Assembly (NCBI GenBank): GCA_964482135.1
Contig: CAYZWF010000001.1
Location: forward strand, 11,362-75,361
From: an uncultured Rhodospirillaceae bacterium
Lineage (GTDB): Bacteria > Pseudomonadota > Alphaproteobacteria > UBA11136
Direction of reading: 5' to 3'
DNA: 64,000 nucleotides
This document shows positions 3,457 through 61,352 of the stretch, piece after piece. The position numbers and the translations under genes are program-made. A model generated the notes under the pieces. The model was given only the letters and a program-made list of their open reading frames with translations. It ran no database searches and was not told where the DNA came from. Within the stretch, counting starts at the first letter, position 1. The number at the start of each line of letters is the position of its first letter.

Positions 3457-3502
3457 GGTTTTTTCGGACCCGCCTCTACCCCCCACGTCCCTACGCGCCC
3501 GT

Positions 3503-5026: not shown

Positions 5027-5137
5027 GTGACGGGCCTCCGCGAAAGCCGGGTGATCTGGGCCGGGTTGCTCCGGGTTGCGGCCAAACCTACCCTCCCTGT
5101 CCGCCGCGTTCAAGAAAGACTAAATCTTTGAAAAATT

Positions 5138-5213
<76 letters not shown>

Positions 5214-5304
5214 GAAAAAAATCGGAACCACCCCTAAAAAATCAGGGTGGATAGTGGGGGCGGATAATGTGTCCCGCGCCAAGCCCTGTCAAGCATACTG
5301 CCCG

Positions 5305-6264: not shown

Positions 6265-6423
6265 GGCAAAGTCCGTTCCAGTTCTTCCTTCCTGGCCACC
6301 CCTCAGAGAACCCAGCCCCGCTAGAGAACTAAAGAATATCCCCGAAAACCACCAAAATCTGACACCGTCCTCTCTCCGCTCTGTTGTACCCTGCCGGTAT
6401 GGAGTAGACTCTTCCGCCTAATA

Positions 6424-6509
6424 GGGCCAGGGTACGTCGGCCCCAAAAAAGGCGGCGCTGGCAAAACCAACAGCGCCGAGCTTGGGAAGGGCCAGGGTAC
6501 GTCGGCCCC
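6424..6509. repeat. Two copies of a REP-like dispersed element (GGGCCAGGGTACGTCGGCCCC followed by an A-run), in reverse orientation
   Basis: An identical 21-mer occurs at 6424-6444 and 6489-6509. It is the same family as the elements at 8927, 9853-10253, 14326 and 29655-29720. Confidence 0.8.
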
Positions 6510-6516
6510 GAAAAGA

Positions 6517-8001: not shown

Positions 8002-8005
8002 GCCC

Positions 8006-8908
8006 ATGGGCGGCGGCGAATTTTCCTTCCAGTATCAACCCGGCACGGACCGGCCCATTTCTCCCCTCTACGTCAACGGCGAGGCCCGGGACACGCTGCC
8101 GGTCTCCGACCGCGGCCTGGCGTACGGCGACGGCCTGTTCGAGACCATCGCCGTGCGCGAGGGCAAACCCGAATTCTGGGGCCGTCACCTGGCCCGTCTG
8201 CGCGAGGGCTGTGAGCGTCTTCGTATTGTTGAACCGGATATGGGAGAATTGTCCCGCGAGTCGCAACTCCTCCTCAACGGCCAGCGCACCAGCCATGGCG
8301 TGGAACAGGGAATCTTGAAGATTATCATTACCCGGGGGTCGGGCGGGCGCGGCTACCGTGCGCCGGAAGATCCTCACCCCACCCGCATCGTTGCCTTTCA
8401 TCCCTGGCCCGACATTCCCGAAACCCATACCTCGGAGGGCGTCAAGATACGGCGCTGTGACCTACGACTTGGTCACCAACCGGCCTTGGCCGGGATCAAG
8501 CATCTCAACCGGCTCGAAAACGTGCTGGCGCGGGCCGAATGGGACGACCCGGAAATCGCCGAGGGCCTGCTCTGCGATGGCGAGGGAAACGTCATCGAGG
8601 GCACCATGAGCAATCTCTTTATGGAACGCGAGGGGGTTCTCTCAACGCCGGACCTCTCGCGTTGCGGCGTGGCCGGGATCATCCGCGCCGTGGTCATGGA
8701 AGAGGCAGGCTCACAGGGGCTTTCCGTGCAGGTGGGCGATATTCGTTACGAAGACGTAATGACAGCAGACGCCCTCTTCCTCACCAACAGCGTCATGGGT
8801 ATCTGGCCGGTGCGCGAACTCGACGGCCACGCCGCCCTCATCAGCCCCACCACCCGCGCGCTGATGGAACGGCTCGAAACCCGTCGCCGCAACCACCGCG
8901 AAGAATAA
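8006..8908 (+). CDS. pabC: aminodeoxychorismate lyase (class IV aminotransferase)
   Basis: PLP fold-type IV pattern (GDGLFETIAV, ...GIKHLNRLENVLA..., EGTMSNLF). The ATG at 8006 sits 5 nt after the pabB stop, so the ORF-track start at 7883 is an extension. Confidence 0.75.
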   Translation: MGGGEFSFQYQPGTDRPISPLYVNGEARDTLPVSDRGLAYGDGLFETIAVREGKPEFWGRHLARLREGCERLRIVEPDMGELSRESQLLLNGQRTSHGVEQGILKIIITRGSGGRGYRAPEDPHPTRIVAFHPWPDIPETHTSEGVKIRRCDLRLGHQPALAGIKHLNRLENVLARAEWDDPEIAEGLLCDGEGNVIEGTMSNLFMEREGVLSTPDLSRCGVAGIIRAVVMEEAGSQGLSVQVGDIRYEDVMTADALFLTNSVMGIWPVRELDGHAALISPTTRALMERLETRRRNHREE

Positions 8909-8926
8909 CCGCCCTCTTTTTTCAGG

Positions 8927-8948
8927 TCCGCAGACTCCGACGTACCTG
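8927..8948. repeat. REP-like element, variant (GGTCCGCAGACTCCGACGTACCTG preceded by a T-run)
   Basis: Matches the longer T-run + GGGGCCGCAGTCTCTGACGTACC family seen at 10003 and 14326. It is followed by an imperfect hairpin at 8947-8980. The element lies between the convergent pabC gene and the peptide array. Confidence 0.6.
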
Positions 8949-9056
8949 TCTCCCAAAGCTGCGAAGCAGCGAAGGGAGACCTTGGGCCTTAAAACAAAAA
9001 ATCCCGCGAGGTGATTCCCCGCGAGGTTTTTGTTAATTCCTGACGCTGGGTCAGGT

Positions 9057-9188
9057 CTATCCAGGCTGGTTGGAGTTAAAGCAATAGTACATAGTTGCTT
9101 GCATGTTCCCGTCAGCCCGGTCCAGGGCTTCGTCGGAAAGCTCGGCCAGGTCTTCGCTCTCGGGTTTTTTCACATCAGTCTTGGGCAT
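9057..9188 (-). CDS. putative RiPP/bacteriocin-like precursor peptide, copy 1 (43 aa): MPKTDVKKPESEDLAELSDEALDRADGNMQATMYYCFNSNQPG
   Basis: The ATG at 9188 is preceded by an AAAGGAAAACCCC SD-like sequence. The conserved 24-aa leader is shared with three paralogues, the C-terminus is unique, and there is a clean stop at 9057-9059. It is absent from the ORF track because it is under 60 aa. Confidence 0.6.
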   Translation of the reverse strand: MPKTDVKKPESEDLAELSDEALDRADGNMQATMYYCFNSNQPG

Positions 9189-9210
9189 GGGGTTTTCCTT
9201 TTAGTGCCAC

Positions 9211-9345
9211 TTACTCAGCCGGTGACGTAGTCCCGCAGTGGCTGGTATTCGTGCATACCTTCGTGATCTCTAAACGGTCCAGGACCTCGTCGCTGAGTTC
9301 AGCCACATCCTCGCTCTCGATTTTTTTCACATCTGTTTTGGGTAT
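9211..9345 (-). CDS. precursor-peptide paralogue, copy 2 (44 aa if translated): [I]PKTDVKKIESEDVAELSDEVLDRLEITKVCTNTSHCGTTSPAE; the start codon is ATA, so it may be a pseudogene
   Basis: The frame is conserved behind an AAAGGGAGGAACCC SD sequence, but the initiator position reads ATA. An in-frame TAA lies 5 codons upstream, so no alternative ATG exists. Confidence 0.4.
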   Translation of the reverse strand: MPKTDVKKIESEDVAELSDEVLDRLEITKVCTNTSHCGTTSPAE

Positions 9346-9367
9346 GGGTTCCTCCCTTTAATGGGGG

Positions 9368-9508
9368 TCAGTCAGCCGGAGCACTATTAGCGCAGGCGCC
9401 ACTGTTGCTGTTGCACCATTGTAAGTTCTCGGCGGTCCGGTCCAGAGCCTCGTCGGCAAGTTCAGCCACATCCTCGCTCTCGATTTTTTTAACGTCTGTC
9501 TTGGGCAT
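9368..9508 (-). CDS. precursor-peptide paralogue, copy 3 (46 aa): MPKTDVKKIESEDVAELADEALDRTAENLQWCNSNSGACANSAPAD
   Basis: The ATG at 9508 is preceded by AAAGGGAGAACCTC. It carries the conserved leader, and the stop is TGA at 9368-9370. Confidence 0.6.
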   Translation of the reverse strand: MPKTDVKKIESEDVAELADEALDRTAENLQWCNSNSGACANSAPAD

Positions 9509-9571
9509 GAGGTTCTCCCTTTAGTGGCGGCTATTCAGCCGGGGACAGCTACGCGCAGCAGCCGACACAGC

Positions 9572-9718
9572 CTATGTTATACACGAGGACGAGGACGCGC
9601 ATCCGCCAACGCTGGCGCATACGATGTACACCTGCGCATCCGAAGTCCGGTCCAGGGCCTCGTCACTGAGTTCGGCCAAGTCTTCGCTCTCGGGTTTTTT
9701 CACATCTGTTTTGGGCAT
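9572..9718 (-). CDS. precursor-peptide paralogue, copy 4 (48 aa): MPKTDVKKPESEDLAELSDEALDRTSDAQVYIVCASVGGCASSSSCIT
   Basis: The ATG at 9718 is preceded by GGGGAGAAAACT. It forms the C-terminal part of ORF-track entry 9572..9904, whose upstream extension crosses non-coding repeat DNA. The core has 3 Cys and a run of Ser. Confidence 0.6.
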   Translation of the reverse strand: MPKTDVKKPESEDLAELSDEALDRTSDAQVYIVCASVGGCASSSSCIT

Positions 9719-9852
9719 AGTTTTCTCCCCGAAAGGTAGAATGAATGTAACGACACACCCATGGGGTTCTCCCCGAAAAGTAGAATGAGTGTAACGACGC
9801 ACCCATCCTAGGCGGAGTCGCCTTCGCGGTGCAAGAAAGCTCTCTTTTTTTA

Positions 9853-10253
9853 GGCCCGACGTACCCTGGTTTAGGGCCGACGTACCCTGGCCCTTGACTC
9901 CCACCCCTCTTTCATGCTAGGAATATTTTCTTAGCTCTTTGACATGATAAAGACGTTTCCCTACCGCGCGGCGGCGCGGCCGGTTGCGCCCATCCTCTTT
10001 TTGGGACCGCAGTCTCTAATTTACCCTGGCCCTTACCGGAGCGATGCTGCGCTGCGGCAGCCCATGTGTACAAATGATGACAAATGTTAACATTTTGGAG
10101 GCCCTGAGGGCATAAATTGTTTGAAATCAAAGACTTGGGCGTAAAAGGATGGGGGTAGTGGGGCGAACAACCCCGGTTTAGGGCTCTTTTTTCGGGGCCG
10201 CCGCACCTGACGTACCCTAGGCTTTTTTTATGGGGCCGACGTACCCTGGCCCC
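9853..10253. repeat. Cluster of at least five REP-like elements (T-run + GG(G)GCCGACGTACCCTGG(CCC), or longer variants with a CAGTCTCT insert)
   Basis: Copies lie at 9853-9869, 9874-9893, 10003-10032 (GGGACCGCAGTCTCTAATTTACCCTGGCCC), 10194-10221 and 10232-10253. Each is preceded by 5-9 T residues. Confidence 0.8.
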
Positions 10254-10264
10254 TGGCCCTAAAC

Positions 10265-11230
10265 TCAGCGCTGGTTTTCCAGCGCTTCCAGATACTCCTC
10301 CAGCGCCGCGCGGCTTTCGGACTCTTGCGGCGTCAGGGCCAGCAAGCGCTGCCACAACTCGGATGCCTTGTCACGGTTGCCGGACTGGGCCTCGGCCAGC
10401 CCCACCATCCACAGGGCCTCTTCGTGTTCGGGCATGACCGCCAACAGACGTTCGTAATACCGGGCCGCCTCGGGCGGGACCAGGGGCACGGCTTCACCGA
10501 GGGACATGTCCTTCTCCGCCTCTTCTTCTTGCGCCAGCACGATTTCGATCCGGGCCAAGGCGAGGAGCAGGCCGGGATCGTTGGGGAAATGTTCGAGACC
10601 CTTCCGTAATGCCCCATAGGCCTCGCCGGGACGCTCCAGAACCAGATAGGACTGGGCCAGCATCCGCCACCCTTCCAGGTTTTCGGGTTCCTGCTCCAGC
10701 CTCGCGGCCAGTCTTTCCACCATGGCGGAAATATCCGCTTCGGAAATGTCCCCAGGCGACATATCAGGAGCTTCCACCTCCTGGCCCTGTTCGCCGCGGG
10801 AATCGAAGGGCTGACCGGGCAGTCCCGGAAACCCCAGGAAAAGATAAAGGCCCAGCGACAGCGCCGGAATCAATACCATCAGCGCCACCAGACTGCGCCG
10901 CCGCAGCCCCGGCGCGAAGGCCGCCACTTGCGGCGCCTGGTCCAACTCGCGGTCGGCGGCCAGCAATCTGCGCTCTATCTCGAGCCGCGCCGGCGTGGCT
11001 TCGGCCTCCGTCAAGACGCCGCGCGCCAGGTCCGCCTCAAGCTCGTGCAACTGGTCGCCATAGACGGCGAGATCATGGCCACCGCGCCCGCGCTCCGTCT
11101 CTTCTTCTCCTTTACCACCGTCGAAGGCGAGCCAGTCCCGGGTGCCAAGCAACAGCGCCACCGCGCCTCCGGCCATCAGGGCAATCAGCACCCAGAACAA
11201 CAGATCAGCCGTCACGGTCTCGCCGCTCAT
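10265..11230 (-). CDS. ccmI: cytochrome c-type biogenesis protein CcmI (CycH), TPR-containing
   Basis: N-terminal TM helix followed by TPR-like repeats. It is the last gene of the ccm operon and overlaps the ccmH stop. Confidence 0.65.
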   Translation of the reverse strand: MSGETVTADLLFWVLIALMAGGAVALLLGTRDWLAFDGGKGEEETERGRGGHDLAVYGDQLHELEADLARGVLTEAEATPARLEIERRLLAADRELDQAPQVAAFAPGLRRRSLVALMVLIPALSLGLYLFLGFPGLPGQPFDSRGEQGQEVEAPDMSPGDISEADISAMVERLAARLEQEPENLEGWRMLAQSYLVLERPGEAYGALRKGLEHFPNDPGLLLALARIEIVLAQEEEAEKDMSLGEAVPLVPPEAARYYERLLAVMPEHEEALWMVGLAEAQSGNRDKASELWQRLLALTPQESESRAALEEYLEALENQR

Positions 11231-11751
11231 GGGCCGTCACCTTCCGCACCGCTCTCCGCGCCGTCTTCCGCGAGCAGCGATTTCAGATGTTTTTTCTCAG
11301 GCCCACTGAGGGGTTTCGGCGTCGCCCCATCCTCCGCCATTTCCCGGCGCCGGTTTATGTAAAAGCGAATCAGCCCCGCGCCGCCGAGGAGAAAGATCAC
11401 CAGCGGCCCGAACCACAACAGCGCGGTCTCGGATTTCATGGGCGGCTTGAGCAGGACGAAATCACCGTAGCGGTCGGTGACGAAGGCCATCACTTCCGCG
11501 TCGCTGTCGCCGGCCAACAGCCGTTCACGCACCAGAACCCGCAGGTCTTTCGCCAGCGAGGCATCGGAATCGTCAATGGTCTGGTTCTGGCAGACGAGAC
11601 AGCGCAGGCCCTGGCTGATGTCCCGCGCGCGCAACTCCAGCACCGGGTCGGACAGCACCTCGGAAGGCTCCACCGCCCCGGCCCCTCGCGTCCCGAGGAC
11701 GAGAACAAGGGCAACAAGAAGAACCACATGGAACGCAGCCAGCTTCCTCAT
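11227..11751 (-). CDS. ccmH: cytochrome c-type biogenesis protein CcmH (CycL)
   Basis: Signal/TM segment followed by the LRCLVCQNQTIDDSDASLAKDLR motif (the CcmH LRCxxC). Start taken at MRKLAAF; the ORF-track N-terminal extension is rejected. Confidence 0.8.
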   Translation of the reverse strand: MRKLAAFHVVLLVALVLVLGTRGAGAVEPSEVLSDPVLELRARDISQGLRCLVCQNQTIDDSDASLAKDLRVLVRERLLAGDSDAEVMAFVTDRYGDFVLLKPPMKSETALLWFGPLVIFLLGGAGLIRFYINRRREMAEDGATPKPLSGPEKKHLKSLLAEDGAESGAEGDGP

Positions 11752-12293
11752 GATCCCAGCTCCGCGATCAGGGGCAGAATGGTTCCGGTCAGGTCGCGCT
11801 CCATGATCGGGCCCACATGGCGGTAACGGATACGTCCCTTGGCGTCCACCACGAAGGTTTCGGGAACGCCATAGACGCCCCAGTCGATGCTGGTCCTGCC
11901 GGTGACATCGGCGCCAATGGCTCGGTACGGGTCGCCGTGACGCGCCAGCCAGGCCATCACGTCCTCCGGCTTGTCCTTCTGGTTGATGCCGAAGATGGAT
12001 ACGCCGTGATCGCGGGAAAGACTCATGAGCTGCGGATGCTCCACCCGGCACGGCACGCACCAGGAGGCGAATACGTTGACCAGCGATACCCGGCCTTCGA
12101 GATCGCCCGAGGAGAAGCCGCCGCCATAGGATTCCCCGCCATCAATTGCGGCGATGGGCGGCAGATCGAACTGCGGCGCCGGCTTGTCGATCAGCGCCGA
12201 GGGCAGGCGTTGCGAATCCAGGGTCAGCCCCACGGCGAAGGCAACGGCGATGGCCGCGAAGATGGCCGTGGGCAGGAGGAATTTCCAGTTCAT
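11748..12293 (-). CDS. ccmG: thiol:disulfide interchange protein CcmG/DsbE
   Basis: Thioredoxin-fold protein with a WCVPCRVE active site (CxxC) after a signal anchor. Start taken at MNWKFLLPT. Confidence 0.8.
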   Translation of the reverse strand: MNWKFLLPTAIFAAIAVAFAVGLTLDSQRLPSALIDKPAPQFDLPPIAAIDGGESYGGGFSSGDLEGRVSLVNVFASWCVPCRVEHPQLMSLSRDHGVSIFGINQKDKPEDVMAWLARHGDPYRAIGADVTGRTSIDWGVYGVPETFVVDAKGRIRYRHVGPIMERDLTGTILPLIAELGS

Positions 12294-14297: not shown

Positions 14298-14852
14298 CGG
14301 GCCGCTCTCTTCCTGGTCCTCTTCTGGGGCCGCAGTCTCTGACGTACCATGGCCCTCCTGGCCCTGCCATTGGCCCGACTTCTTCAGGGCGTCGGCCACT
14401 TCCGGGGGCATATAGTTCTCGTCATGCTTGGCCAGCACATTGGAGGCCTGAAACACGCCGTTGCGGTCGAGGCTGCCTTCCGCCACCACGCCCTGACCCT
14501 CGTGGAAGAGATCGGGAAGAAGACCGCTAAAGGTCACCGGCACCTCGTTGGAAAGGTCCGTGATCCGAAATACCACCGATCCGTCCCCGGCATTGCGTTC
14601 CACGCTTTCCTCCACCACCAGCCCGCCGAGACGCAGGCGGCGGCCCGGCTCTATGTCGCGGTCGAGAATTTCCGAAGGGCTGTAGAAAAAAACCAGATTA
14701 TCGCGCAGCGCCGAAAGCACCAGCGCCACCGATCCGCCCAGCAACACCATTCCGGCAAGCACCAGATACAGCCGCCGCCGCTTGCGGGTCATGGGCCGTT
14801 TCGGCGGAGAATTCTGAGGTGCCCCCGCGCTATCCTGGGTGGGAGTGCTCAT
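14295..14852 (-). CDS. ccmE: cytochrome c-type biogenesis heme chaperone CcmE
   Basis: Signal anchor followed by an OB-fold region with the CcmE-typical ...NLVFFYSPSEI... and LAKHDENYMPPEV (heme-binding His region). Confidence 0.85.
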   Translation of the reverse strand: MSTPTQDSAGAPQNSPPKRPMTRKRRRLYLVLAGMVLLGGSVALVLSALRDNLVFFYSPSEILDRDIEPGRRLRLGGLVVEESVERNAGDGSVVFRITDLSNEVPVTFSGLLPDLFHEGQGVVAEGSLDRNGVFQASNVLAKHDENYMPPEVADALKKSGQWQGQEGHGTSETAAPEEDQEESGP

Positions 14853-51166: not shown

Positions 51167-52768
51167 CTAGCCATGGGAAGGCCCCTGGCGGGATGGTTTG
51201 GAACCCGCGAGCCTGGCCTCGGCGATGAATTCCCGCACCGGGTCCCAGACGATAATGAAGAGAAGTCCCAAGCATCCCACGCCCAGGACAATCCGTTGCG
51301 CCATGTCCACCGAAAGGACAGCCATGGACCAGGCGGCGGCGATAAAGCCGACGGCCACCGTGACCAGAATTACTATGCGGGGAACGCTCACCACGGGAAG
51401 GAACAAGTTCAATTTGGCCTGGGAGAACCAGTAGATAGAGACCAGCATGACGAACTCGGTGGCGATCCAATAGGTCAACATGCCCGGGAAGGTATATTCA
51501 ACAATTCCTCCCGCCGGAATCAGCGCCAGCACGGCGGCGGTCTGCAGCCACAGGGCGCGGGCACCGAACCGTTCATTATCGCTGGCCTGAAGCAGATACC
51601 AAAAGGGAACATTGGCGAGGGTAATCAGATTGCCGATAATCAGAAGGCGGGTGGCCATGACCAGCCCTCCAGGAAGTTCACCCAGCCACAGTGAATAGGC
51701 TTCTCCGGCGAACAGCAAAAGCAGAACAAATCCCGACGTTCCCGCCGCCCCGAGAGCGAGTAGGGAAACTCGCAGTAATTCAATGGTGGCTTTCCTTTCA
51801 TCGCCGCGGTGGAGGACCGCAAGCCCCGGGAAAAGGGCCGTAAAGCCGGAAGCCGCGATATCGCGGATGGTGTGTGTCACCCGCATGGCGATGTCGTAGA
51901 GCCCCACTGCCTGGGGCCCGAGACTCACCCCCAGCACCAGCCGGAACACAGGCTCGCGAAGAATGAAGCCGACGGATATGACATAGAGATGCCATCCCCG
52001 CCGCATCAGGGAGCGCAGATGAAGCAGCGTTTCGAAAGGCGACAGCGCCACGGCCGCCGCCGCCCATTGCGGATGATGGCGCTTCAGGCGATGGCGGAAA
52101 ATCACGATCTGGGAAAGGCTCGAGAGCAACGCGCCTGCCGCCAGCCCCTCGATAGGCGCGCCCAGAAGGGTGCCGGCGACCGAGGCCGCGAAGGGAAAGA
52201 CGGGCGTGATGGCCAAAACCAACTGCACCCCGTAATTGTCGTTGCGCGCCGCCAGTACCGCGGCATCGAGCCGGGCGGTGATCTGTAAGGTGGCGCCCAC
52301 CACCAAGGCCATGGTGGCCAGCAAAAGATCGCCCGGGGAATAATATTCCGAGAGGCCTAAAAATAGCCCCTCTCCGGCGAACAGCAGCGCGCCAAGAACC
52401 ACGGCGGCGACGGCGGCATAGACCCGCCGCGCGGCAAGATGGTCGCGGCGGCACTGTATGGCTTCACCCTCACTGCGGTCACGTCCGGCCTCGCGGGTGA
52501 TGAGCAGGCTGAACCCCACATCGGCCATGCCCAGATAAGAAGTCAGCGTGGATAACAGCGACCACAGGCCCAGCACCGCCAGTCCGGCACGGTCAAGCAT
52601 CAGGGGGTAGAGGATGAAATATCCGGCGACGGGAACGATGAAGCGTAACGGTCCGGCCAGAGCGGAGCGGAAAATGTCTCGCTGTACGTTGAATACAGCG
52701 GAGGAAGGCGCAGGTGGGCCAGTCTGGGGCGTCTGTTCCGCGTTGTCGTCCTGATGTGTCACATTCAC
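51167..52768 (-). CDS. polysaccharide biosynthesis/export protein (Wzx-like MOP-superfamily flippase)
   Basis: About 12-14 TM helices, an N-terminal cytoplasmic stretch, and typical O-antigen flippase hydrophobicity. The start is uncertain. Confidence 0.6.
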   Translation of the reverse strand: MNVTHQDDNAEQTPQTGPPAPSSAVFNVQRDIFRSALAGPLRFIVPVAGYFILYPLMLDRAGLAVLGLWSLLSTLTSYLGMADVGFSLLITREAGRDRSEGEAIQCRRDHLAARRVYAAVAAVVLGALLFAGEGLFLGLSEYYSPGDLLLATMALVVGATLQITARLDAAVLAARNDNYGVQLVLAITPVFPFAASVAGTLLGAPIEGLAAGALLSSLSQIVIFRHRLKRHHPQWAAAAVALSPFETLLHLRSLMRRGWHLYVISVGFILREPVFRLVLGVSLGPQAVGLYDIAMRVTHTIRDIAASGFTALFPGLAVLHRGDERKATIELLRVSLLALGAAGTSGFVLLLLFAGEAYSLWLGELPGGLVMATRLLIIGNLITLANVPFWYLLQASDNERFGARALWLQTAAVLALIPAGGIVEYTFPGMLTYWIATEFVMLVSIYWFSQAKLNLFLPVVSVPRIVILVTVAVGFIAAAWSMAVLSVDMAQRIVLGVGCLGLLFIIVWDPVREFIAEARLAGSKPSRQGPSHG

Positions 52769-52810
52769 CCCTTGAGTGCGGCCCCGGTCAGGCGCGATCC
52801 CGCTCCGCGC

Positions 52811-53776
52811 TCAGCTTTCCGCTGCGGCCTCTGAAGAAAGCAGCCGGTCAAAATAGTCTATGGTGTGTTTCAGGCCTTCCTCCAGGGGAACCGAAGGCGT
52901 CCAGTCCAGCTTCTCACGCGCCTGTGTGATGTCCGGGCATCGTTGCAGGGGGTCGTCCTCGGGCAGCGGTTTTTTCACCAGTTTCGATTTCGCTCCGCTC
53001 AGGGAAATAATGGTTTCCGCCAGTTCCCGTATGGTGATCTCGTGCGGGTTACCGAGATTGATGGGGCCGGGCACGTCGTCGGGCGCATTCATGAGCCGGG
53101 TGATGCCTTCGATCATGTCGTCCACAAAACAGAAAGAACGGGTCTGTTCGCCGTCACCGTAAAGAGTAATGTCCTCCCCGCGCAGGGCCTGGACCATGAA
53201 ATTGGAGACCACCCGCCCATCATCGGGAAGCATGCGCGGGCCATAGGTGTTGAAAATCCGCGCCACGCGGATGGGAAGATTGTGCTGGCGGTAATAATCA
53301 AAGAACAGGGTTTCGGCGCATCTCTTGCCCTCGTCGTAACAGGCGCGGGGTCCGATGGGGTTGACCCTGCCGCGATAGGTTTCGTCCTGGGGGTGAATCT
53401 CGGGATCGCCGTAGACCTCGCTGGTGGAGGCCTGAAAAATTCTCGCGCCCGTACGTTTGGCAAGCCCCAGCATGTTGATGGCGCCGTGAACGCTGGTCTT
53501 GGTGGTCTGCACGGGGTCGTGCTGGTAATGAACGGGAGAAGCCGGACAGGCCAGATTGTAAATCTGGTCCACTTCCACATAGAGCGGAAAGGTCACGTCA
53601 TGGCGCATCAGTTCGAAATGGGGGTTGGCAAAGAGATGCTGGACATTGTCCTTGGAGCCGGTGAAGAAGTTGTCCACGCACAGCACGTCATGGCCGTCGC
53701 CCAGCAGCCGCTCACACAGGTGGGACCCAAGAAATCCCGCTCCACCCGTAACCAGAACTCGTTTCTGTGAATGCAT
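52811..53776 (-). CDS. UDP-glucuronate decarboxylase (UDP-xylose synthase), SDR family
   Basis: [19 protein letters not shown], catalytic YDEGKR (YxxxK), and high similarity to the UXS/ArnA decarboxylase domain. Start at MHSQKR. Confidence 0.8.
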
Positions 53777-53905
53777 CCGTCCCCAGGCTCCACTCAAGAA
53801 TTTTTCACGCCTGCGTAAGGTTTACACATACCAGCGCGCCGTAGAGACTATCACCGATGGCGGGCATTGATAAACCGCCGCCATTCCCGTCGCGACCGCG
53901 TCCTG

Positions 53906-54121
53906 TCATGTGCGGAGAAAGGATTGGCTGTCTTCTTCGAGTGCCAGGCAGGTGAGAATTCCGCTTGAATAGGCACCGGTGTCGATGCCGATGCGGTTGG
54001 GAAGGATCTCGGGCTCGGGCCGGATGGTGTGGCCGTGAACCACGACCTTTCCGTGATTGGCTTTAGAACCGAGGAATTCACCGCGTATCCACAACACGTT
54101 TTCTTCCTTTTGTTCGTCCAA
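53906..54121 (-). pseudogene. Truncated metallophosphoesterase (PP2B/ApaH-like) with only the C-terminal third retained
   Basis: ...VVVHGHTIRPEPEILPNRIGIDTGAYSSGILTCLALEE matches the C-terminal His/Asp motifs of calcineurin-like phosphoesterases. The N-terminal GDxHG/GDxxDRG/GNHE half is absent and there is an in-frame stop just upstream. Confidence 0.5.
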
Positions 54122-54321
54122 TGGACCGAGAACCGGTCATGCACTAACATTCGAACTGGACCACTCAAGAGGGGCTGGTCATTTCTAGGCCCCATGGCTG
54201 TGTCAATTTTGATGATCTGTTAGATCGGCTCGAGATTGAAGGAGATCGGGAGCGTCGATGTTTATCTGAAATCGTAAATCTACATGCTGACTTTGAATGG
54301 CTCGACCAAGAGAAGAAATGG

Positions 54322-55194
54322 TTGTGGGATGTTAATAGTTTCGAGAAAGGACTAAATCGTATTGTCAACGTCATTCGGAAAATCTTTTCCGTTACTCCTT
54401 CCCTACACATTACCGAACTTAGGCAAGGATTAGGCAGATACCACCGCATAGCATTCGTTCCGCACAGTCGGGTGTTACTAGAAATATGCCGTCAACTCGA
54501 TTTTCTTGAGGTTAGGGAAAATCAAGTGAACACCATTTCTGGCAGGAGGCTTCCCAGCACTCTAGTGGGGATTGAGTCAACGCTGATCAAAGCGTTTCAG
54601 GGAAAACCGATCCTTTCCAGAGAAGCGCTTGAAACCAATGCCTTGGCTTTAGGAATGAATCGATCGAGCTTTTACGTAATGATTGGTTATTCACCAATAG
54701 TAGTCCGATTAGCTAGAGGGGTATATGCCCCTATTGGCGCAGATATTCCACCCGGTGTTGTTGAAGCAACAAAACCATCATTTCAAAGGAAGCGGGTTGT
54801 TGTTGATTTTGGCTGGAATGCTAACAGATATCTGTGGATCGCTTATCGTTTATCCAAAGCTATGCTAAGCGGCAACCAGGTCAATGTGCCAACCTCCGTA
54901 AAAGAGTTTATACAGGGAGAATGGCCTATGGAGACGACTAGTCAGGGAAAAGTCGCAGTCGTTTCGATAAATGGTACCAGTGTATCGGGCTTTTATACGC
55001 TTCTAGATAGACGCGGGGCCGAGTGTGGGGACACTCTAATTTTGGTGTTTGATACAAAAGATCATTTGTTTCGGATGGAGCTAGGCAGCGATGAATTGGT
55101 CGAGCGATGGAAAAATAGCGAACTTAAATTAACAGACGATCAGTTACTTGACCTTGATTCAGATAGTGAAGAAAGGGAAGCCCCCGCGGGTTAA
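54322..55194 (+). CDS. hypothetical protein in an AT-rich insertion (an ORF of about 290 aa, and the frame stays open upstream to 54148)
   Basis: Visibly lower GC than the flanks, with no recognised domain and an acidic C-terminus (DLDSDSEEREAP). The start is uncertain: TTG at 54322, and no in-frame ATG upstream. Confidence 0.45.
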   Translation: MWDVNSFEKGLNRIVNVIRKIFSVTPSLHITELRQGLGRYHRIAFVPHSRVLLEICRQLDFLEVRENQVNTISGRRLPSTLVGIESTLIKAFQGKPILSREALETNALALGMNRSSFYVMIGYSPIVVRLARGVYAPIGADIPPGVVEATKPSFQRKRVVVDFGWNANRYLWIAYRLSKAMLSGNQVNVPTSVKEFIQGEWPMETTSQGKVAVVSINGTSVSGFYTLLDRRGAECGDTLILVFDTKDHLFRMELGSDELVERWKNSELKLTDDQLLDLDSDSEEREAPAG

Positions 55195-55351
55195 CTCTCG
55201 TGTTTTGCCACCCTTAATCCCCCGCCTTCGCGGTGGCCATATCCATGAGAGGTAGAGCGAACTCTTCCCTCCCCCGGTCGTTTCGGGCAAAGTGGCGCTC
55301 CAAAAAATAAAATAAAGAAAGACCGCGCGCCCGCGCGCCCAGAGAAACTCC

Positions 55352-55663
55352 ATGGATATCGCCACAGCACATAAAATCCGGGAAAATCCCAAGTTCGCGG
55401 CCATGGTCGCGCGCAAGGAGCGCATGGGGCGGCGGCTGACCGGGTTCATGCTGGTGGTTTATTTCGGATTCATCCTCACCATCGCATTCGCCCCCCACTG
55501 GCTGGCGATTTCATTAAGCGCGACGGGCGTGATGACGCTGGGTATTCCCATCGGCATCGCCATCATCCTGGCCGCCTTCGCCGCCACCGGGGTCTACGTC
55601 TATTGGGCCAATACCCATTTCGACGAAATCACCCGGGAAATCCTCAAAGAGGCGGGACATTGA
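55352..55663 (+). CDS. DUF485 (YjcH-like) inner-membrane protein
   Basis: 103-aa two-TM protein immediately upstream of actP, the classical yjcH-actP pairing. Confidence 0.75.
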   Translation: MDIATAHKIRENPKFAAMVARKERMGRRLTGFMLVVYFGFILTIAFAPHWLAISLSATGVMTLGIPIGIAIILAAFAATGVYVYWANTHFDEITREILKEAGH

Positions 55664-55679
55664 TGACGGGTCTCACTAG

Positions 55680-57233
55680 ATGACGGACCTCAATATTCCC
55701 GCCATCGCCATGTTCTTCGTCTTCGTGGCCGCGACGCTAGGGATTACCCGGTGGGCGGCGCGGCGCACCCGCACGCGGGCGCATTTCTATGCCGCGGGGG
55801 GAAATATCACGGCGCTGCAGAACGGGCTGGCCATCGCCGGGGACTATATGTCGGCGGCGTCCTTTCTCGGTATCTCGGGGCTGGTGTTTTTGTCGGGCTA
55901 TGACGGGCTGATCTATTCCATCGGCTTCCTGGTGGGCTGGCCCATTATTCTGTTTTTGATCGCCGAACGGCTGCGCAATCTGGGGAAATATACCTTCGCC
56001 GATGTGGTGTCGTTCCGGCTGTCGCCGGTGCCGGTGCGCTCGATCTCGGCCTGCGGCGCGCTGGCCACGGTGATTCTGTATTTGATCGCGCAGATGGTGG
56101 GGGCGGGAAAGCTGATCGAATTGCTGTTCGGGCTGCCTTATGAATCGGCGGTGATTATCGTCGGCGTGCTGATGATTCTCTATGTGAGCTTCGGCGGCAT
56201 GATCGCCACCACCTGGGTGCAGATCATCAAGGCGGTGCTGTTGTTGCTGGGGGCGAGCTTCATGGCCGTGGCGGTGCTGTGGAACATGGGATTCAGCTTC
56301 GAGGCGTTATTCGAAAACGCGGTGACCGTCCACCCCAAAGGAAAAGCCATCATGGCGCCGGGGGGGCTGCTCAGTGATCCGGTCTCGGCCATATCCTTAG
56401 GATTGGCGCTCATGTTCGGCACCGCCGGGCTGCCCCATATTTTGATGCGTTTCTTCACCGTGCCCGACGCGCGGGAGGCCCGGACCTCGGTTTTTTATGC
56501 CACCGGATTCATCGGCTATTTCTATATTCTCACATTCATTATCGGCTTCGGAGCCATCGTTCTGGTGAGCGGCGACGCACGGTTTCTCGACTCCGCCGGC
56601 GCGCTGATGGGCGGCAACAACATGGCGGCCATCCATCTGGCCCAGGCCACCGGCGGCGATCTGTTCCTGGGGTTCATTTCGGCGGTGGCCTTCGCCACCA
56701 TCCTGGCGGTGGTGTCGGGACTCACATTGGCGGGGGCGTCGGCCGTGAGTCATGATCTCTATGCCAGCGTGTTGCGCCACGGCGAGGCCAATGACGCCGA
56801 GGAATTGAAGGTGTCGCGCATGGCCACGGTGGGGCTGGGGGTGCTGGCCATAGCCCTGGGCATCGTCTTCGAGCAACAGAACGTGGCCTTCATGGTGGGA
56901 CTGGCCTTCGCCATCGCGGCGAGCGCCAATTTCCCGGTATTGCTGCTGTCCATGTATTGGTCGAAGCTGACCACGCGGGGGGCCTTCTGGGGCGGCGCCT
57001 GTGGCTTAAGCGTGGCGGTTGGGCTGATGATTTTAGGGCCCACGGTATGGGTGGACGTGCTGGGAAATAGCGACCCCGTCTTCCCCTATAAATATCCCGC
57101 TTTGTTCGCCATGAGCGCGGCCTTTCTGGCGGCCTGGGGCTTTTCGGTGAGCGACACCAGCCCGCGGGCCAAGGCCGAGCGTGAGGCTTTTGACCTGCAA
57201 TATATCCGCTCGGAAGTGGGGCGCGTGGGATAG
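55680..57233 (+). CDS. actP: cation/acetate symporter ActP (sodium:solute symporter family)
   Basis: 517-aa SSS-family transporter following the DUF485 gene. Conserved [29 protein letters not shown]-terminal region. Confidence 0.8.
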
Positions 57234-57242
57234 GGCGGGCTC

Positions 57243-57970: not shown

Positions 57971-58789
57971 TTATTTATTGTAAAAAAGCAGGGCGCCGCT
58001 GCCCTGGACCGAAATATCGCCCACATATTTGCGCAGCCGGTTGTCCGACGGGTTGAGCACCGAAAAGGCTCCGCCTTGACGTTTGAGGTGGGCGAGAAAC
58101 AGGTGATGGAAGGGCAGCGTGTGGGTGCCGCTGTCGTTGAAGGTTTCGGGGAAGCGCGTGGGCGGCCGCATCATGAAGAGAGCACCACGGCGCATGGCGA
58201 AACCGAAGCGCGGCCCCACATCGCCCATGACGGCGATGGAACCGGCGATCATACGCGAGGCGCAGAGTTCTCCCACATCGCCTTCGATCAATATCAGCCC
58301 GCGCCGCAGCCGGTCTCCGGTGCGCGCCCCGGCATTGCCTTCGACGCGGACCACGCCGCCGTTCATGCCGATGCGCTCGCCGGGGATGGGCGCGCCCAGG
58401 AAATCGCCGGCATTACCTTCGATAAGGATTTCCCCGTCGCGCATGCCGCTGGCGGCGAAGTTGCCGGCATTGCCGTGGACGATGATGTCGCCGCCGGTCA
58501 TGCCGTGGCCGAGACGGTCCCCGGCATCGCCATAGACCTCGAGCATGCCCTCGCTCCAGCGCGAGCCGATACCGTCGATTTTGTCACAAATATTGTCGAG
58601 AACGAGCCGCTCGCCGGGCTTGCCGTAGACCACGAACAGGTCGCCGAGGACGCATTTGCGGTTGCCCACGAAAACCGGGAGTTTTTCGATCTCGGCGGCC
58701 TTTTTGGCGGCGCGGATCTTCTCCGTCAGCGGAGAGAGGTCCACGCGCTGGCGCGGCGCGTCCTTGAGGATGATGGCGAAGCCGCTCAT
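57971..58789 (-). CDS. fhcC: formyltransferase/hydrolase complex subunit C (FwdC/FmdC-like GXGXG beta-helix)
   Basis: Repeated GNAG/GDVG beta-helix units (GNAGNFAASGMRDGEILIEGNAGDF...). Positioned directly downstream of fhcD. Confidence 0.75.
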   Translation of the reverse strand: MSGFAIILKDAPRQRVDLSPLTEKIRAAKKAAEIEKLPVFVGNRKCVLGDLFVVYGKPGERLVLDNICDKIDGIGSRWSEGMLEVYGDAGDRLGHGMTGGDIIVHGNAGNFAASGMRDGEILIEGNAGDFLGAPIPGERIGMNGGVVRVEGNAGARTGDRLRRGLILIEGDVGELCASRMIAGSIAVMGDVGPRFGFAMRRGALFMMRPPTRFPETFNDSGTHTLPFHHLFLAHLKRQGGAFSVLNPSDNRLRKYVGDISVQGSGALLFYNK

Positions 58790-59682
58790 TTGAGAACCTT
58801 GTGCAGATGAAAGTGATAGGGCCCCAGCTTGCCGCCGTAATGACCGGCGCTGATGCGGACGATACCGTTCTTGCGGCCCAGGGTGCAGACGGCACGGATG
58901 CCCGCGCGCATGGCGCGGGCGATGTCCTTTTCGGCGAGCCCGTCGATGACGATTTCCATCACCGATTCCACCTCCGGCGGGAGCTCGGTCTTGGTCAGGC
59001 CTTTCAGTGTGGGACAGAAGGCGTCGTTGGTGGAGGCCGAGAGCTTGGGATATTTTGAGCCCAGCTTGGACCCCGAACCCACAACGCCGCCGGGAAAGGG
59101 CATGACCACGTTTTCCACCCGGTTCATGGCGGTGATCGCCCGTTCAGCCGCGCTCAATGCCTGGCCGCGGGATTCGGCGAGGATCAGGAAATTACCGCCG
59201 CCGATGCCCGGCACCTCGTGAGCGTAGTCTTCCACCAGGAACTCGCCATCCATGATGGGAATGCGCCAGTAGCGGATTTTCCCCAGCAGTTTCGACCTCT
59301 GGAAGCCGTCGCCGAAATAACGCAACGCCGCCCCCATCTTGATCTTCTTGCCCTCCCTGATGCCGGCGTAACAGGCCGAGGTGGGCGAAGTCATGACGCT
59401 TTGCCCGGTGCGGGTAACCACGTGTTTGGCCAGTTCCTTGCTGTTCATGGCGAACAGCAGCACCGACATGCCGGGACGGCCATCGGGGGTCTCGCTGGGC
59501 TTGAGCTTTTTCTCGATTCCCGTCTCCACGCCGCAGGCGATGACCGAGGTGGAAAAACCGATCATGCTGTTTGCGGCGGTGAAGGCCCAGCGCTCGGTGT
59601 CGGCGGTGATGATGAGCCGGGTCGCCACCATGGGAAAGGCCTCGGCGAAGGTGTCGTCGATTTTAACGCCGTTGATGATCAT
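58786..59682 (-). CDS. fhcD: formylmethanofuran:tetrahydromethanopterin formyltransferase (Ftr) homologue
   Basis: MIINGVKIDDTFAEAFPMVATRLIITA... matches the Ftr N-terminus. About 300 aa. Start taken at MIING, overlapping the fhcA stop. Confidence 0.8.
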   Translation of the reverse strand: MIINGVKIDDTFAEAFPMVATRLIITADTERWAFTAANSMIGFSTSVIACGVETGIEKKLKPSETPDGRPGMSVLLFAMNSKELAKHVVTRTGQSVMTSPTSACYAGIREGKKIKMGAALRYFGDGFQRSKLLGKIRYWRIPIMDGEFLVEDYAHEVPGIGGGNFLILAESRGQALSAAERAITAMNRVENVVMPFPGGVVGSGSKLGSKYPKLSASTNDAFCPTLKGLTKTELPPEVESVMEIVIDGLAEKDIARAMRAGIRAVCTLGRKNGIVRISAGHYGGKLGPYHFHLHKVLK

Positions 59683-61352
59683 GCCCGCCTGCCTTTCCCG
59701 CATTTATGGGTCTCGACGCGGAAGCGTCCGTCGTCGGGAAAATCGGACTCGCGGATCACGAAATTCCCCATCTGCATTCCCTGGAAATCACTGAAATAGG
59801 ATTTAAGGCTTTTCTCGATGCCGGAGTGATATTCGGGACGCACCACATGGGTTGCGCCCCAGGTGACGTTCACCACCTTGCCATTGCGCGCCACCAGATT
59901 ACCATCCTTGAATACGTAATCGGGTTTTTCGAACATGCGCTCCTTGTTGGCGTGGGGGGTATAGACGGTGATGTCGGCGGCCGCACCCGCGCCCAGATGG
60001 CCGCGGTTTTTAAGGCCCAGGATACGGGCCGGCGCGGCGCGGGTCATGATGGCGATATCGTAGAGACTGTATTCGCGCTTGATGGAGCGCAAGGTTGAAA
60101 CGTCGCCGGCATGCTTGTTGACGGTGTCGAGCATGGAATTGCGGAAGCTGCGGTCCATCAACAGGCGGATCAAATGGGGATAGCTGGTAAACGGCGCGCC
60201 GTTGGGGTGGTCGGTGGTGAGGAAAATGCGCCAGGGGTCGTTCACCAGAAGGAAAATCTCGAGCCCGATGGCCCATTGCAGGGCGTTGACGAAATTGCGG
60301 TCACGATAGCGGAAAGGAACCACGCCGCATCCCGCCTGGCAGTCGATATCCATGCACACCCATTTGTGGGGAGAGGCGAGATCGGCGTTGTGGTGCTGGG
60401 TCATGGTGTCGCCCGACGCCGTGACGGTCTGGCCGAACATGATCTGGCCCACATCCACGGTGATATTCTTTTGCTTGTTGATGGCCTCGGCGATGCGCGC
60501 GGCTCCCGAGGAGAACCCCCTGTCGCCTTCCGTGCCATAGGTGTGGAACTGGATATGGGTGAGATGCATGGGCAGGCCGCCGGCCCCGGCCATGGTCTTG
60601 AGCGTGGTCTCCACATTGCCCGGAACCCCGAGATTACAGCCATGCACATGCAAGGGGTGGGGCACGCCGAGATCGGTCAAGGCGCGGGTCAGCGATTTCA
60701 ACACCTTGCGCGGCGTCAATCCGTAATGGGAATCGGTTTCGTCGAGGTCGAGCATGCGGTCGTTGAATTTGAAGGCGCTGATGCCGCCGGGATTCACCAC
60801 CTTGACGCCCAGCGCCTGGGTCGCCCCCATCATCCAGGCCACGTAATCGGTGATGGCTTTCTGGTCGGCCTTGCGCGAGAGCATGCGGAGAAAGAAATCG
60901 TCATTGCCGAGCATCACATAGGCGCCCTTGTCGATGATCGGCACATCCGCCATCTCGAGATGGGCCTGGCGCGCATTGACGGGCACCAGGGCGGGCTCGA
61001 AGGCCGCCGTATAGCCCATCTCGGCATAGCGGTAGCCGGTGGAAAAACTGGTCATGGTGGGTTCGCCGGAACCCGAGCGTTTGAGCCGCGAGCGTTTGGC
61101 CTGGTACTGGCGGTGTTCCTCGGGCAACAGCATGCGGGCGATATTGACCTTGCCGCCGGCGATATGGCTGTGCAGGTCCATGGCCCCGGCCATCACCACT
61201 TTGCCCGTCACGTCGTACACCTGGTCGGGCTTTTCGGAACCGGGGGGGCGTTTCACGATGCGCCCGTCGCGGATGAAAATATCCTGTTTGCGGCCGTTGA
61301 TCTTGTGAGCCGGGTCGAAAACCTTTCCGCCTGTGAGTTTGATCAGCATCAC
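59679..61352 (-). CDS. fhcA: formylmethanofuran dehydrogenase subunit A homologue (amidohydrolase superfamily)
   Basis: MMLIKLTGGKVFDP...AMDLHSHIAGGKVN (metal-binding HxH). About 557 aa, as for FwdA/FhcA. Confidence 0.8.
   Translation of the reverse strand: MMLIKLTGGKVFDPAHKINGRKQDIFIRDGRIVKRPPGSEKPDQVYDVTGKVVMAGAMDLHSHIAGGKVNIARMLLPEEHRQYQAKRSRLKRSGSGEPTMTSFSTGYRYAEMGYTAAFEPALVPVNARQAHLEMADVPIIDKGAYVMLGNDDFFLRMLSRKADQKAITDYVAWMMGATQALGVKVVNPGGISAFKFNDRMLDLDETDSHYGLTPRKVLKSLTRALTDLGVPHPLHVHGCNLGVPGNVETTLKTMAGAGGLPMHLTHIQFHTYGTEGDRGFSSGAARIAEAINKQKNITVDVGQIMFGQTVTASGDTMTQHHNADLASPHKWVCMDIDCQAGCGVVPFRYRDRNFVNALQWAIGLEIFLLVNDPWRIFLTTDHPNGAPFTSYPHLIRLLMDRSFRNSMLDTVNKHAGDVSTLRSIKREYSLYDIAIMTRAAPARILGLKNRGHLGAGAAADITVYTPHANKERMFEKPDYVFKDGNLVARNGKVVNVTWGATHVVRPEYHSGIEKSLKSYFSDFQGMQMGNFVIRESDFPDDGRFRVETHKCGKGRRA

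Follow-up and report, generated by a model that had tools for sequence, protein, structure and literature searches.

Several described systems share features with the locus analysed here. PglW, a protein of type 2 BREX, is described as carrying, from about residue 800 onward, an RNA polymerase alpha-CTD-like domain followed by three winged helices (PMC12839542). The MZA system combines MzaA, with a sigma-70-like helix-turn-helix (HTH), and MzaB, a GHKL/MutL-like ATPase. B3-like domains are found in plant B3 factors as well as at the N-terminus of LlaJI.R1 and the C-terminus of NgoFVII, and EcoRII-N and BfiI-C are also B3-like DNA-binding domains of restriction enzymes. A further point of comparison is given by the calcineurin-like Ser/Thr phosphatases 1 of the PrpA/PrpB/lambda-phosphatase type.

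In the window, by which we mean the whole 64-kb stretch of DNA that was analysed, remnants of two genes meet: one of a phosphatase of the latter type and one, here called X', of a gene family (X) whose predicted modules recall the former systems. We consider the locus, with a probability of about 80%, to be a recent and probably non-functional scar in which two gene stumps are joined 5'-end to 5'-end. Its features are as follows.

53906-54124, minus strand: phosphatase stump, approximately residues 171-242 of a 242-aa PrpA/lambda-type Ser/Thr phosphatase
53906-54121, minus strand: called 71-aa ORF with a TTG start, a mechanical call (database entry P0007)
54114-54124, no strand: site of a 77-bp frameshifting deletion relative to L006, inside the phosphatase remnant, with the FVHAG motif region lost
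54125-54173, minus strand: more phosphatase-derived sequence, on the upstream side of the 77-bp deletion, conserved with relatives in the phosphatase frame
54174-54183, no strand: left junction, bases assignable to neither parent
54184-55165, plus strand: foreign fragment X', approximately residues 305-625 of the 628-aa protein P0290
54322-55194, plus strand: called 290-aa ORF with a TTG start, identical to JGI protein P0001, a mechanical call inside X'
55166-55216, no strand: right junction, with the distal half of an intergenic repeat that is dispersed in the host

The flanking genes were assigned by Pfam scan to UXS (PF16363/PF01370) and DUF485 (PF04341), and actP to the SSF transporter family (PF00474) through precomputed matches on the identical contig L003, in agreement with the DUF485-actP neighbourhood proposed in the initial annotation. 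Between about 54150 and 55200 the GC content drops from 0.58-0.62 to 0.44-0.46. The segment 54174-55194 has a GC of 0.449 and a GC3 of 0.415, compared to a GC of 0.61 for the whole window and a GC3 of 0.64-0.81 for the neighbouring genes, and it is the sole 1-kb stretch of the window with a GC below 0.5, which bears out the AT-rich character first ascribed to it.

The phosphatase stump retains only the C-terminal motifs VVHGHT and GIDTGA. Intact orthologues of 242-266 aa, which in Reyranellales- and Rhodospirillales-like genomes are the immediate upstream neighbours of UXS, were found by a UXS-based scan of genome contigs, in which the best genome reached at most 80% aa identity and whose value lay in revealing the intact phosphatase beside UXS (242 aa in L012 and 266 aa in L016, with the same synteny in L018, L022, L026, L047 and L070). 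When the 242-aa L012 orthologue was used as a tblastn query, residues 171-242 were matched (E 2e-28, 66% identity), and on the phosphatase family HMM of 262 positions the stump covers 180-252. Residues 1-170 gave no match anywhere in the 64 kb in tblastn searches with intact orthologues. Matches to PDB 4j6o (E 0.048) and to NCBIfam Pnkp/PrpE (about 1e-3) were likewise restricted to the C-terminal part, and the homologues of the stump carry the source name serine/threonine protein phosphatase 1. With both the C-terminal motifs (GH-T and GIDTG) and the orthologous place upstream of UXS, the stump belongs to this family, and the earlier claim of a truncated phosphoesterase gene holds. The N-terminal metal-binding motifs GDxHG, GDxxDRG and GNH(E/D) are absent from the window phosphatase and the HAG motif is gone as well, so the stump cannot be an active enzyme. 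A phosphatase N-terminus hidden in a 244-bp stretch of L006 or in window positions 55195-55351 was considered and rejected, as both the phosphatase HMM and tblastn came back empty.

X' is absent from three relatives at about 85% nt identity (L006, L007 and L089), and the AT-rich gene is therefore not core. All three contain a short phosphatase ORF that is free of the insert. It had initially been allowed that such relatives might show an intact short phosphatase-like gene; their ORF is instead a decaying stump, with a nonsense codon, substitutions at conserved residues and an omega of about 0.8. The 244 bp present at this position in L006 were also examined as a diverged piece of X, and the family HMM found nothing there.

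Comparison with L006 locates the ends of the host sequence. By blastn, window positions 52665-54124 correspond to L006 2659-1201 and positions 54114-54173 to L006 1124-1063, with an 11-bp overlap in the window, such that the 11 bases 54114-54124 align to two places in L006. The resulting 77-bp deletion is flanked by a short repeat, of which one copy reads GTCCATTGG and the other GTCCCACTGG in the L006 and window sequences. Upstream of it, the region 54125-54173 still resembles L006 (77% identity over 62 bp, E 5e-7), and in the phosphatase frame the window reads ...PLLSGPVRMLVHDRFSVHW where L006 reads ...RPSLTGPV*MLVHNCQGVHW, with CGA in the window in place of the TGA just before the L006 ATG at 1087. 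Homology to the relatives stops at 54173. In this lineage the 5' break of the phosphatase does abut AT-rich DNA, as had been proposed.

On the other side of the left junction, homology to the donor-like contig L098 begins at about 54181-54196. Reading the alignments by eye, host GAGGGCCGTCCAGGC and donor GAAGGCTTTCCCAGGC appear alike at this point, which hints at microhomology. At the right junction, a local alignment joins window positions 55147-55216 to L006 851-775, with the well-matched part starting near 55166; the homology is weak (blastn E 0.011). The proximal half of the dispersed intergenic repeat also occurs at window positions 8928-8980 and 14330-14348. The X' frame continues into host-derived sequence for about 9 codons (…SEEREAPAG) and stops at a TAA (55192-55194) that is there by chance. 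These last 9 codons align to host DNA and not to the X family, the proteins of which end about 6 residues earlier (e.g. ...LDPDDDA).

The plus-strand frame is open from 54148 to 55194 (349 codons), its first ATG, GTG or TTG being the TTG at 54322, and it ends in an acidic C-terminal tail. It had no match in Pfam, NCBIfam, PADLOC or PHROGs. The ORF list and these four database scans agree with the initial annotation, in which the frame was said to have no in-frame ATG before TTG 54322, an acidic tail and no recognisable domain. Homology to the X family starts at about 54184, and 46 codons separate this point from the only start codon downstream. X' shares 85% aa and 90% nt identity with P0290, aligns to L098 (GC 0.446) without gaps over 54196-55145 at 89.8% nt identity, and covers positions 381-704 of the 726 in the X family HMM (E 3e-112). 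Some 305-410 N-terminal residues are missing from the frame, as are a start and a stop of its own. It also lacks the alpha-CTD-like and sigma-70 r4 domains of the N-terminus, and the N-terminal parts of P0290 and P0127 had no match in the window. Judged by these alignments, X' is an internal fragment of a gene encoding 590-750 aa and not a complete orphan gene.

The stand-alone, single-gene insertion originally put forward does not survive this comparison. A complete defence, toxin or regulatory cassette, inserted in the phosphatase gene and bordered by target-site duplications, would explain both the foreign composition and the position of the segment against a truncated phosphatase. It is nonetheless highly improbable, as the full-length homologues P0290, P0127 and P0288 and the HMM coordinates refute it, the only start codon lies downstream of where the homology begins and the native stop has been lost. 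The missing phosphatase half is not on the far side of the segment, and the PADLOC and PHROGs scans were empty. Direct and inverted repeats around 54120-55220 were only short and at chance level, with no terminal inverted repeat and none of the target-site duplications anticipated at about 54120 and 55200. The database entries P0001 (290 aa) and P0007 (71 aa) are consequently to be read as gene stumps and not as orphan genes, defence genes or short phosphatases.

What X' once belonged to was assessed from its homologues. A phmmer search yielded 1106 representatives of clusters at 50% identity, 321 of them at E <= 1e-30, with a median length of 717 aa, and the region homologous to X' is always a C-terminal module of approximately 330 aa in these proteins. 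Most of the full-length members scanned, including P0004, P0005, P0127, P0128, P0288 and P0290, carry Pfam RNA_pol_A_CTD and Sigma70_r4 domains at the N-terminus. An AF2 model of the X' module based on 22 sequences (pLDDT 83.9; an earlier model with 6 sequences was poor, pLDDT 54) predicted three winged helices and a B3-like beta-barrel. The model also had structural matches at the level of the fold. Taken together, X is predicted to be a protein of 590-750 aa composed only of DNA-binding modules: one or two alpha-CTD-like domains, a sigma-70 r4 HTH, three winged helices and a B3-like barrel.

The genes around X form a recurrent module, in the order of a gene for a protein of about 200 aa, a GHKL ATPase gene and X (L001, L002, the P0006 contig and L092-L094). 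The GHKL ATPase lies immediately upstream of X in three independent contexts, the pairing was seen in every full-length relative with readable upstream DNA, each time in a mobile or restriction-modification context, and in P0294 the ATPase is fused to the C-terminal part of X. Between the L092 and L001 islands, the proteins of about 200 aa and the GHKL ATPases are homologous at 48-58% identity. The 7-kb L092 island (GC 0.40-0.48) contains an integrase, is inserted in tRNA-Gly(CCC) and is bounded by the duplicated tRNA-Gly. In L092 the module spans 6993-12232, where the GHKL gene is split, and the L001 operon spans 535-6640. With the GHKL ATPase, a C5 methylase with Vsr and an integrase among them, the contexts of the homologues, for which a search in phage-defence islands had been suggested, are defence-island-like. 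Searches elsewhere returned little: no paper on the X family was found, tblastn of P0290 against plasmids gave only matches at 25% identity to hypothetical proteins in unrelated contexts, and neither the viral contigs nor the metagenome contigs, the latter scanned with alignment A1 and with the phosphatase-stump DNA pattern, contained a match. Short family members were considered as natural stand-alone forms and rejected, as most of them come from short contigs and cluster with longer proteins, and as P0186 (289 aa, with no GHKL partner nearby) is cut off by a DDE_5 transposase gene; P0225 (352 aa) may be an exception.

The age of the scar can be estimated from the substitutions in both stumps. 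Compared to L006, the phosphatase stump has an omega of 0.125 and has kept all conserved residues. Under neutrality, synonymous and non-synonymous differences would be expected at about 1:3.4; the observed 18.5 and 10.5 mean that the phosphatase must have been under selection until very recently. An old truncation shared with the relatives was rejected on the same ground, since a neutral stump would be expected to show approximately 3.4 non-synonymous differences per synonymous one and no degenerate residues were seen. In X', omega is 0.22 upstream and 0.32 downstream of TTG 54322, values that were judged the same, and 10 lineage-specific amino-acid changes in the window copy stand against 20 in P0290, so that there is no excess. 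As neither stump shows decay, the event was recent. X' is foreign and recently acquired, with an unameliorated composition; the GC3 of 0.415, the nucleotide identity to low-GC L098 and the amino-acid changes all corroborate the earlier proposal of a recent acquisition of foreign DNA. Purifying selection on the truncated X' and too little time for decay cannot be told apart, the 349-codon frame being still open. The arrival of X' may have caused the phosphatase truncation or followed closely after it, the phosphatase of the relatives being also 5'-truncated.

A domesticated protein is another reading of the intact frame. X' could be translated from TTG 54322 into a 290-aa DNA-binding regulator, or into a dominant-negative decoy against incoming GHKL-X modules. 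The JGI gene caller predicts this product, the frame is intact and the protein 100% identical on all 15 contigs that carry it, and the TTG is preceded at 6 nt by GAGAAG, a weak Shine-Dalgarno-like sequence. In the AF2 prediction, the TTG-initiated product would keep two winged helices and the B3-like domain and be able to fold and bind DNA, so that well-predicted domains would survive the truncation, and the lack of excess amino-acid changes on the window lineage also fits a maintained protein. We nevertheless regard this reading as unlikely. The 46 codons before the TTG are as constrained as those after it, which indicates an inherited pattern and not new selection, and the TTG lies at the end of the first winged helix, which a start there would cut. 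The N-terminal DNA-binding domains and the GHKL partner are missing, X' is absent from the nearest relatives, and P0186, the short family member with an interpretable context, is truncated by a transposase gene. A scan for sigma-70-like promoters over 53700-55500 gave 0 sites, the terminator-like sites were unremarkable, and Rfam returned nothing at E <= 1 over 52500-56500. With no enzymatic domain, partner ATPase, native start or detectable promoter, X' most likely has no function, and it will decay.

In the course of events that we propose, the phosphatase gene or the DNA beside it would have received a GHKL-X island or part of such an island. Through illegitimate recombination, the locus would then have lost the remainder of the island, the 5' approximately 305 codons of X together with its last few codons, and the 5' approximately 128 codons of the phosphatase with its promoter. 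A separate, later 77-bp deletion between the short repeats would have frameshifted the phosphatase stump. In general, integrated islands are more often degraded through deletions. The integrase, att repeats and tRNA target, all present in the L092 island, are all missing from the window locus: the only tRNAs of the window are at 5138 and 28124, not near the locus, and no remnants of an integrase, a GHKL ATPase, a homologue of the approximately 200-aa protein or other island genes were found in the window.

The same scar could have been produced in a single step, if a double-strand break at the phosphatase gene or close to it was resected and then repaired through end-joining or microhomology-mediated illegitimate recombination, with a random piece of X of about 1 kb as filler. 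This would have replaced the 5' half of the phosphatase, its upstream region and half of the intergenic repeat, and differs from the insertion and deletions described above only in history. Both ends of X' fall inside gene X, and in L098 low-GC DNA runs at least 1.1 kb past X, such that an island would have needed deletions on both sides. The absence of decay in either stump favours a single recent event, and the lack of an att site, direct repeat, nearby tRNA or integrase remnant, as well as the host and donor resemblance at the left junction, point the same way. Against it stand the greater frequency of island loss by deletion and the position of the right break, within approximately 10-25 bp of the natural end of X. 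A random fragment would hardly be expected to end there, but the same coincidence would be required of a random deletion. No allele with the whole island was found at the locus. An insertion with two subsequent deletions and capture in one step are roughly equal in parsimony, and we tentatively regard the latter as plausible. By either route, the locus would be the scar that we favour, and it shows, as a clean and datable case, how foreign DNA can be lost along with a core gene. The remnant also led to a large unannotated family of about 1100 clusters, a by-product that may outweigh the finding itself in usefulness.

Compared to known systems, the phosphatase stump shares the C-terminal motifs and the UXS adjacency with the PrpA/PrpB/lambda-type enzymes and differs from them by the loss of the three N-terminal metal-binding motifs and the HAG motif. 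P0186, a decayed copy of the family, shares the C-terminal module with X', is of similar length and likewise lacks a neighbouring GHKL partner, whereas its truncation is tied to an IS element and the X' junctions are without IS or repeats. The C-terminal domain of X may resemble, at the level of the fold, the B3-like domains of LlaJI.R1, NgoFVII and the plant factors, as suggested by a predicted model with moderate scores; in contrast to the restriction enzymes, X has no nuclease domain, and there is no detectable sequence similarity. Full-length X has the arrangement seen in PglW, with an alpha-CTD-like domain, an HTH and three predicted winged helices. The N-terminal parts of the X family matched PADLOC PglW at positions 805-956 (E 1.5e-6) and NCBIfam BREX_PglW at 795-960 (E 5.7e-6), both weakly and far under the family cut-off (24 versus 990 bits), and the window piece has no PglW match. 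X differs from PglW in the absence of NERD nuclease and kinase domains, in a B3-like barrel at the C-terminus where PglW has an inactive STAND ATPase, and in having no BREX genes nearby. In its organisation the module is similar to MZA, as it pairs an r4 HTH protein with a GHKL ATPase near a methylase or in a defence island. Weak matches to MZA were obtained for both partners, and PADLOC on full-length X relatives gave only weak, domain-level matches, to MzaA and PglW. The parent module of the approximately 200-aa protein, the GHKL ATPase and X may be an undescribed restriction-like or anti-phage system, in which X would be the DNA-scanning subunit in analogy to the alpha-CTD and triple winged-helix part of PglW, and the GHKL-X pairing in a mobile or restriction-modification context makes it a reasonable candidate for such an uncharacterised module.

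The AT-rich segment at 54174–55194 had a GC content of 0.449 and a GC3 of 0.415, compared to a GC3 of 0.64–0.81 in the neighbouring genes and a GC content of 0.607 over the whole window, and was the sole 1-kb stretch with a GC content below 0.5 in the 64 kb (the window composition profile dips to 0.44–0.46 at approximately 54150–55200). Both reading frames described in the initial annotation, including the TTG as first start of the plus-strand frame, were recovered in the ORF list. Judged from its sequence, the locus appears to be a recent scar that joins two genes head-to-head, both lacking their 5' part:

53906–54121, minus strand, 71-aa ORF, stump of a PrpA/lambda-type Ser/Thr phosphatase gene adjoining UXS
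54148–55194, plus strand, open frame with the earliest possible start at TTG 54322
54184–55165, plus strand, X', a piece of approximately 990 bp of a parent gene, X

By Pfam scan, UXS matched PF16363/PF01370 and the DUF485 gene PF04341, while precomputed matches for a JGI marine-metagenome contig identical to the window (L003) assigned actP to the SSF transporter family PF00474. Two more contigs from the same population differed from the window by 4 and 8 SNPs, none within the AT-rich segment.

On its own, the 71-residue stump gave only weak matches to metallophosphoesterase C-termini, and a homology search with it returned many fragments named "serine/threonine protein phosphatase 1". The uniformly short match list was rejected as proof of short genes, since single-sequence searches yielded no match exceeding roughly 1.7 times the query length: a 76-aa query returned nothing above 132 aa, and the same type of search also missed P0127, a 743-aa full-length member of the X family with 65% identity. 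The list is thus a search artefact, silent on whether short genes exist. Distant Alphaproteobacteria (Reyranellales- and Rhodospirillales-like MAGs, and Vineibacter) carry an intact gene of 242–266 aa, with the motifs GDIHG, GDYVDRG, GNHE and FVHAG, immediately upstream of UXS and facing the same way. The window stump corresponds to residues 171–242 of this phosphatase (E 2e-28; HMM positions 180–252 of 262), and the remaining part of the protein had no match anywhere in the 64 kb, which indicates that the phosphatase gene is truly truncated, as initially proposed.

The plus-strand frame is likewise a fragment. A first homology search gave proteins of 408–591 aa that align over the whole frame from its 13th codon, far upstream of the TTG, and an exhaustive phmmer search gave 1106 cluster representatives (321 with E <= 1e-30); the best 146 hits had a median length of 717 aa. 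The region matched by the window frame was always C-terminal in these hits, and the family HMM (726 positions) matched nucleotides ~54190–55159 at positions 381–704. A profile search found P0290, a 628-aa protein 85% identical to the frame, whose contig (L098, GC 0.446) shares 89.8% DNA identity with 54196–55145 without gaps; by this alignment the window carries residues ~305–625. Most full-length members scanned, and all close relatives of the fragment, carry at the N-terminus a Sigma70_r4 helix-turn-helix together with either one or two copies of RNA_pol_A_CTD; this part is absent from the window. Family proteins end approximately 6 residues earlier than the window frame (...LDPDDDA), whose last ~9 codons (SEEREAPAG*) align to host DNA of a relative. 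Given the homology upstream of the TTG and the host-derived last codons, X' has lost both its own start and its own stop.

Three relatives at ~85% nucleotide identity, L006 and L007 (Logan assemblies) and L089 (JGI), share the gene order DUF188, ~330 bp, phosphatase stump and UXS; X' is absent from all three, and DUF485–actP from L006 and L007. From UXS across the stump, the window stays homologous to the host relatives as far as 54173, apart from 77 bp that are deleted in the window between short repeats of the GTCCAYTGG type. Donor homology to L098 begins at ~54181–54196, placing the left junction at 54174–54183. On the right side, X homology ends at ~55165 and L006 homology restarts, weakly (blastn E 0.011), within a dispersed intergenic repeat with other partial copies at 8928–8980 and 14330–14348. 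The repeat has the core CCGCAGWCTCYGACGTACC, followed further on by GCTGCGAAGCGAAGGGAG, and was seen at the following places:

Window: 8928–8980, 9990–10030, 10190–10250, 14317–14356 and 55166–55216
L006: 775–851

A pattern search matched the window twice, where 0 matches would be expected. One copy contains the right junction of X', and the repeat, which looks REP-like, may be prone to recombination. Around the junctions there were no notable direct or inverted repeats, and no tRNA was found near them.

Beyond the repeat, the DUF485–actP pair (55217–57240) is host-like in composition (actP GC3 0.81). It is missing from L006 (compared over 707–775), where only ~20 bp separate DUF188 from the repeat; the pair was either deleted in L006 or acquired in the lineage of the window. 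Downstream of DUF188 (57971–59703 and beyond) lie genes with GXGXG, FTR and Amidohydro_3 domains, which may encode an Fhc-type complex (formyltransferase/hydrolase) for C1 metabolism linked to tetrahydromethanopterin; this would suggest a methylotroph-like marine alphaproteobacterium.

The window stump has kept all conserved residues, and its omega against L006 (0.125; 18.5 synonymous and 10.5 non-synonymous differences) is similar to those of UXS (0.088) and DUF188 (0.155). The relatives carry 5'-truncated stumps of 104–106 aa with premature stops and substitutions at conserved residues, and an omega of ~0.8 among themselves:

L006:1084–1419 and L089:108–428, 5'-truncated stumps with a nonsense codon, early stops, and His to Asn or Lys and Gly to Arg at conserved residues

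A codon just ahead of the start called in L006 reads TGA there but CGA in the window. The low omega and kept residues argue that the window phosphatase was under selection until very recently and that its loss in the relatives was a separate or an earlier event; sister lineages thus appear to have lost the gene in parallel. The upstream sequence common to the window and L006 was rejected as an old joint breakpoint, since homology must stop where X' begins, whatever the state of L006. Against L098, X' had a dS of 0.24 and an omega of 0.31 (no different between the two sides of the TTG, at 0.22 upstream and 0.32 downstream), outgroup-polarised amino-acid changes numbered 10 window-specific against 20 P0290-specific, and its composition is unameliorated (GC3 0.415). 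By these measures X' is as fresh as the stump.

The favoured history would be the entry of an island carrying X and its GHKL ATPase, followed by deletions. No remnant of an integrase or other island gene was found in the window. Capture of a fragment in a single step, while a break was repaired, would explain the locus about as well, since X' begins and ends inside the X gene and low-GC DNA runs on past X in its closest relative, L098. In either case no promoter was detected for X', which is without start, stop, N-terminal domains and ATPase partner, and translation of a 290-aa DNA-binding product from TTG 54322 is improbable. The earlier reading of recent foreign DNA of defence-island origin beside a truly truncated phosphatase gene stands, but that of a stand-alone single-gene insertion does not. 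The locus itself is of an ordinary kind, the decayed remnant of an island or a pseudogene scar, and involves an uncharacterised family; it is the parent module that is a lead worth pursuing.

In three independent contexts X (590–750 aa) follows, in the same order, a ~200-aa protein and a ~550-aa GHKL ATPase (HATPase_c_3), as a conserved module found repeatedly on mobile DNA:

Contigs carrying the module
L001:535–6640, followed by a 585-aa protein, then a methylase, a Fic gene and an integrase
L002:3–3845, followed by a 585-aa protein, then a Vsr gene and a C5 DNA methylase
Contig of protein P0006, followed by a 585-aa protein
L092:5620–12628 and L093:50–7058 (L092–L094), 7-kb island, GC 0.40–0.48

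One end of the L092–L094 island carries an integrase and its flanks a duplicated tRNA-Gly(CCC), and its ~200-aa and GHKL proteins are 48–58% identical to those of the other island type. In P0294, an 860-aa ENA protein on a 3.6-kb contig, an N-terminal GHKL ATPase is joined to the stretch of X that spans its sigma-4, winged-helix and B3-like domains; the protein is either a deletion-generated chimera or a natural fusion, in which case functional coupling would gain support. In L095:241–2453, the gene for P0186 (289 aa) is cut off by a DDE_5 transposase gene, whose 3' end it overlaps, and is a stump too, an independent case of the family cut to its C-terminal module. P0225 (352 aa; L096:3439–4497 and L097:2622–3680) adjoins three small unannotated opposite-strand genes with no GHKL ATPase in view; it could be a true short form of the family or one more remnant.

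PADLOC did not recognise the module as a system, and no curated model spans the ~330-aa part kept in the window. A good AlphaFold model of this part, built from 22 sequences (pLDDT 83.9), has three winged helices in tandem and a beta-barrel at the C-terminus, so that X would consist of predicted nucleic-acid-binding modules throughout. Built around a GHKL ATPase, the module is a candidate for an uncharacterised restriction-like or defence module, in which we infer, by analogy, that X could serve as the DNA-recognition subunit. Among known systems, the GHKL protein gave only weak matches to the models for BbrUII/HgiDII restriction enzymes and for MzaB, and X matched the MzaA and PglW models through its alpha-CTD and sigma-4 part only. 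The helical part of the X model matched the tandem winged-helix array of SelB and winged-helix proteins, and the layout of X resembles the alpha-CTD and triple winged-helix region described for BREX PglW (PMC12839542).
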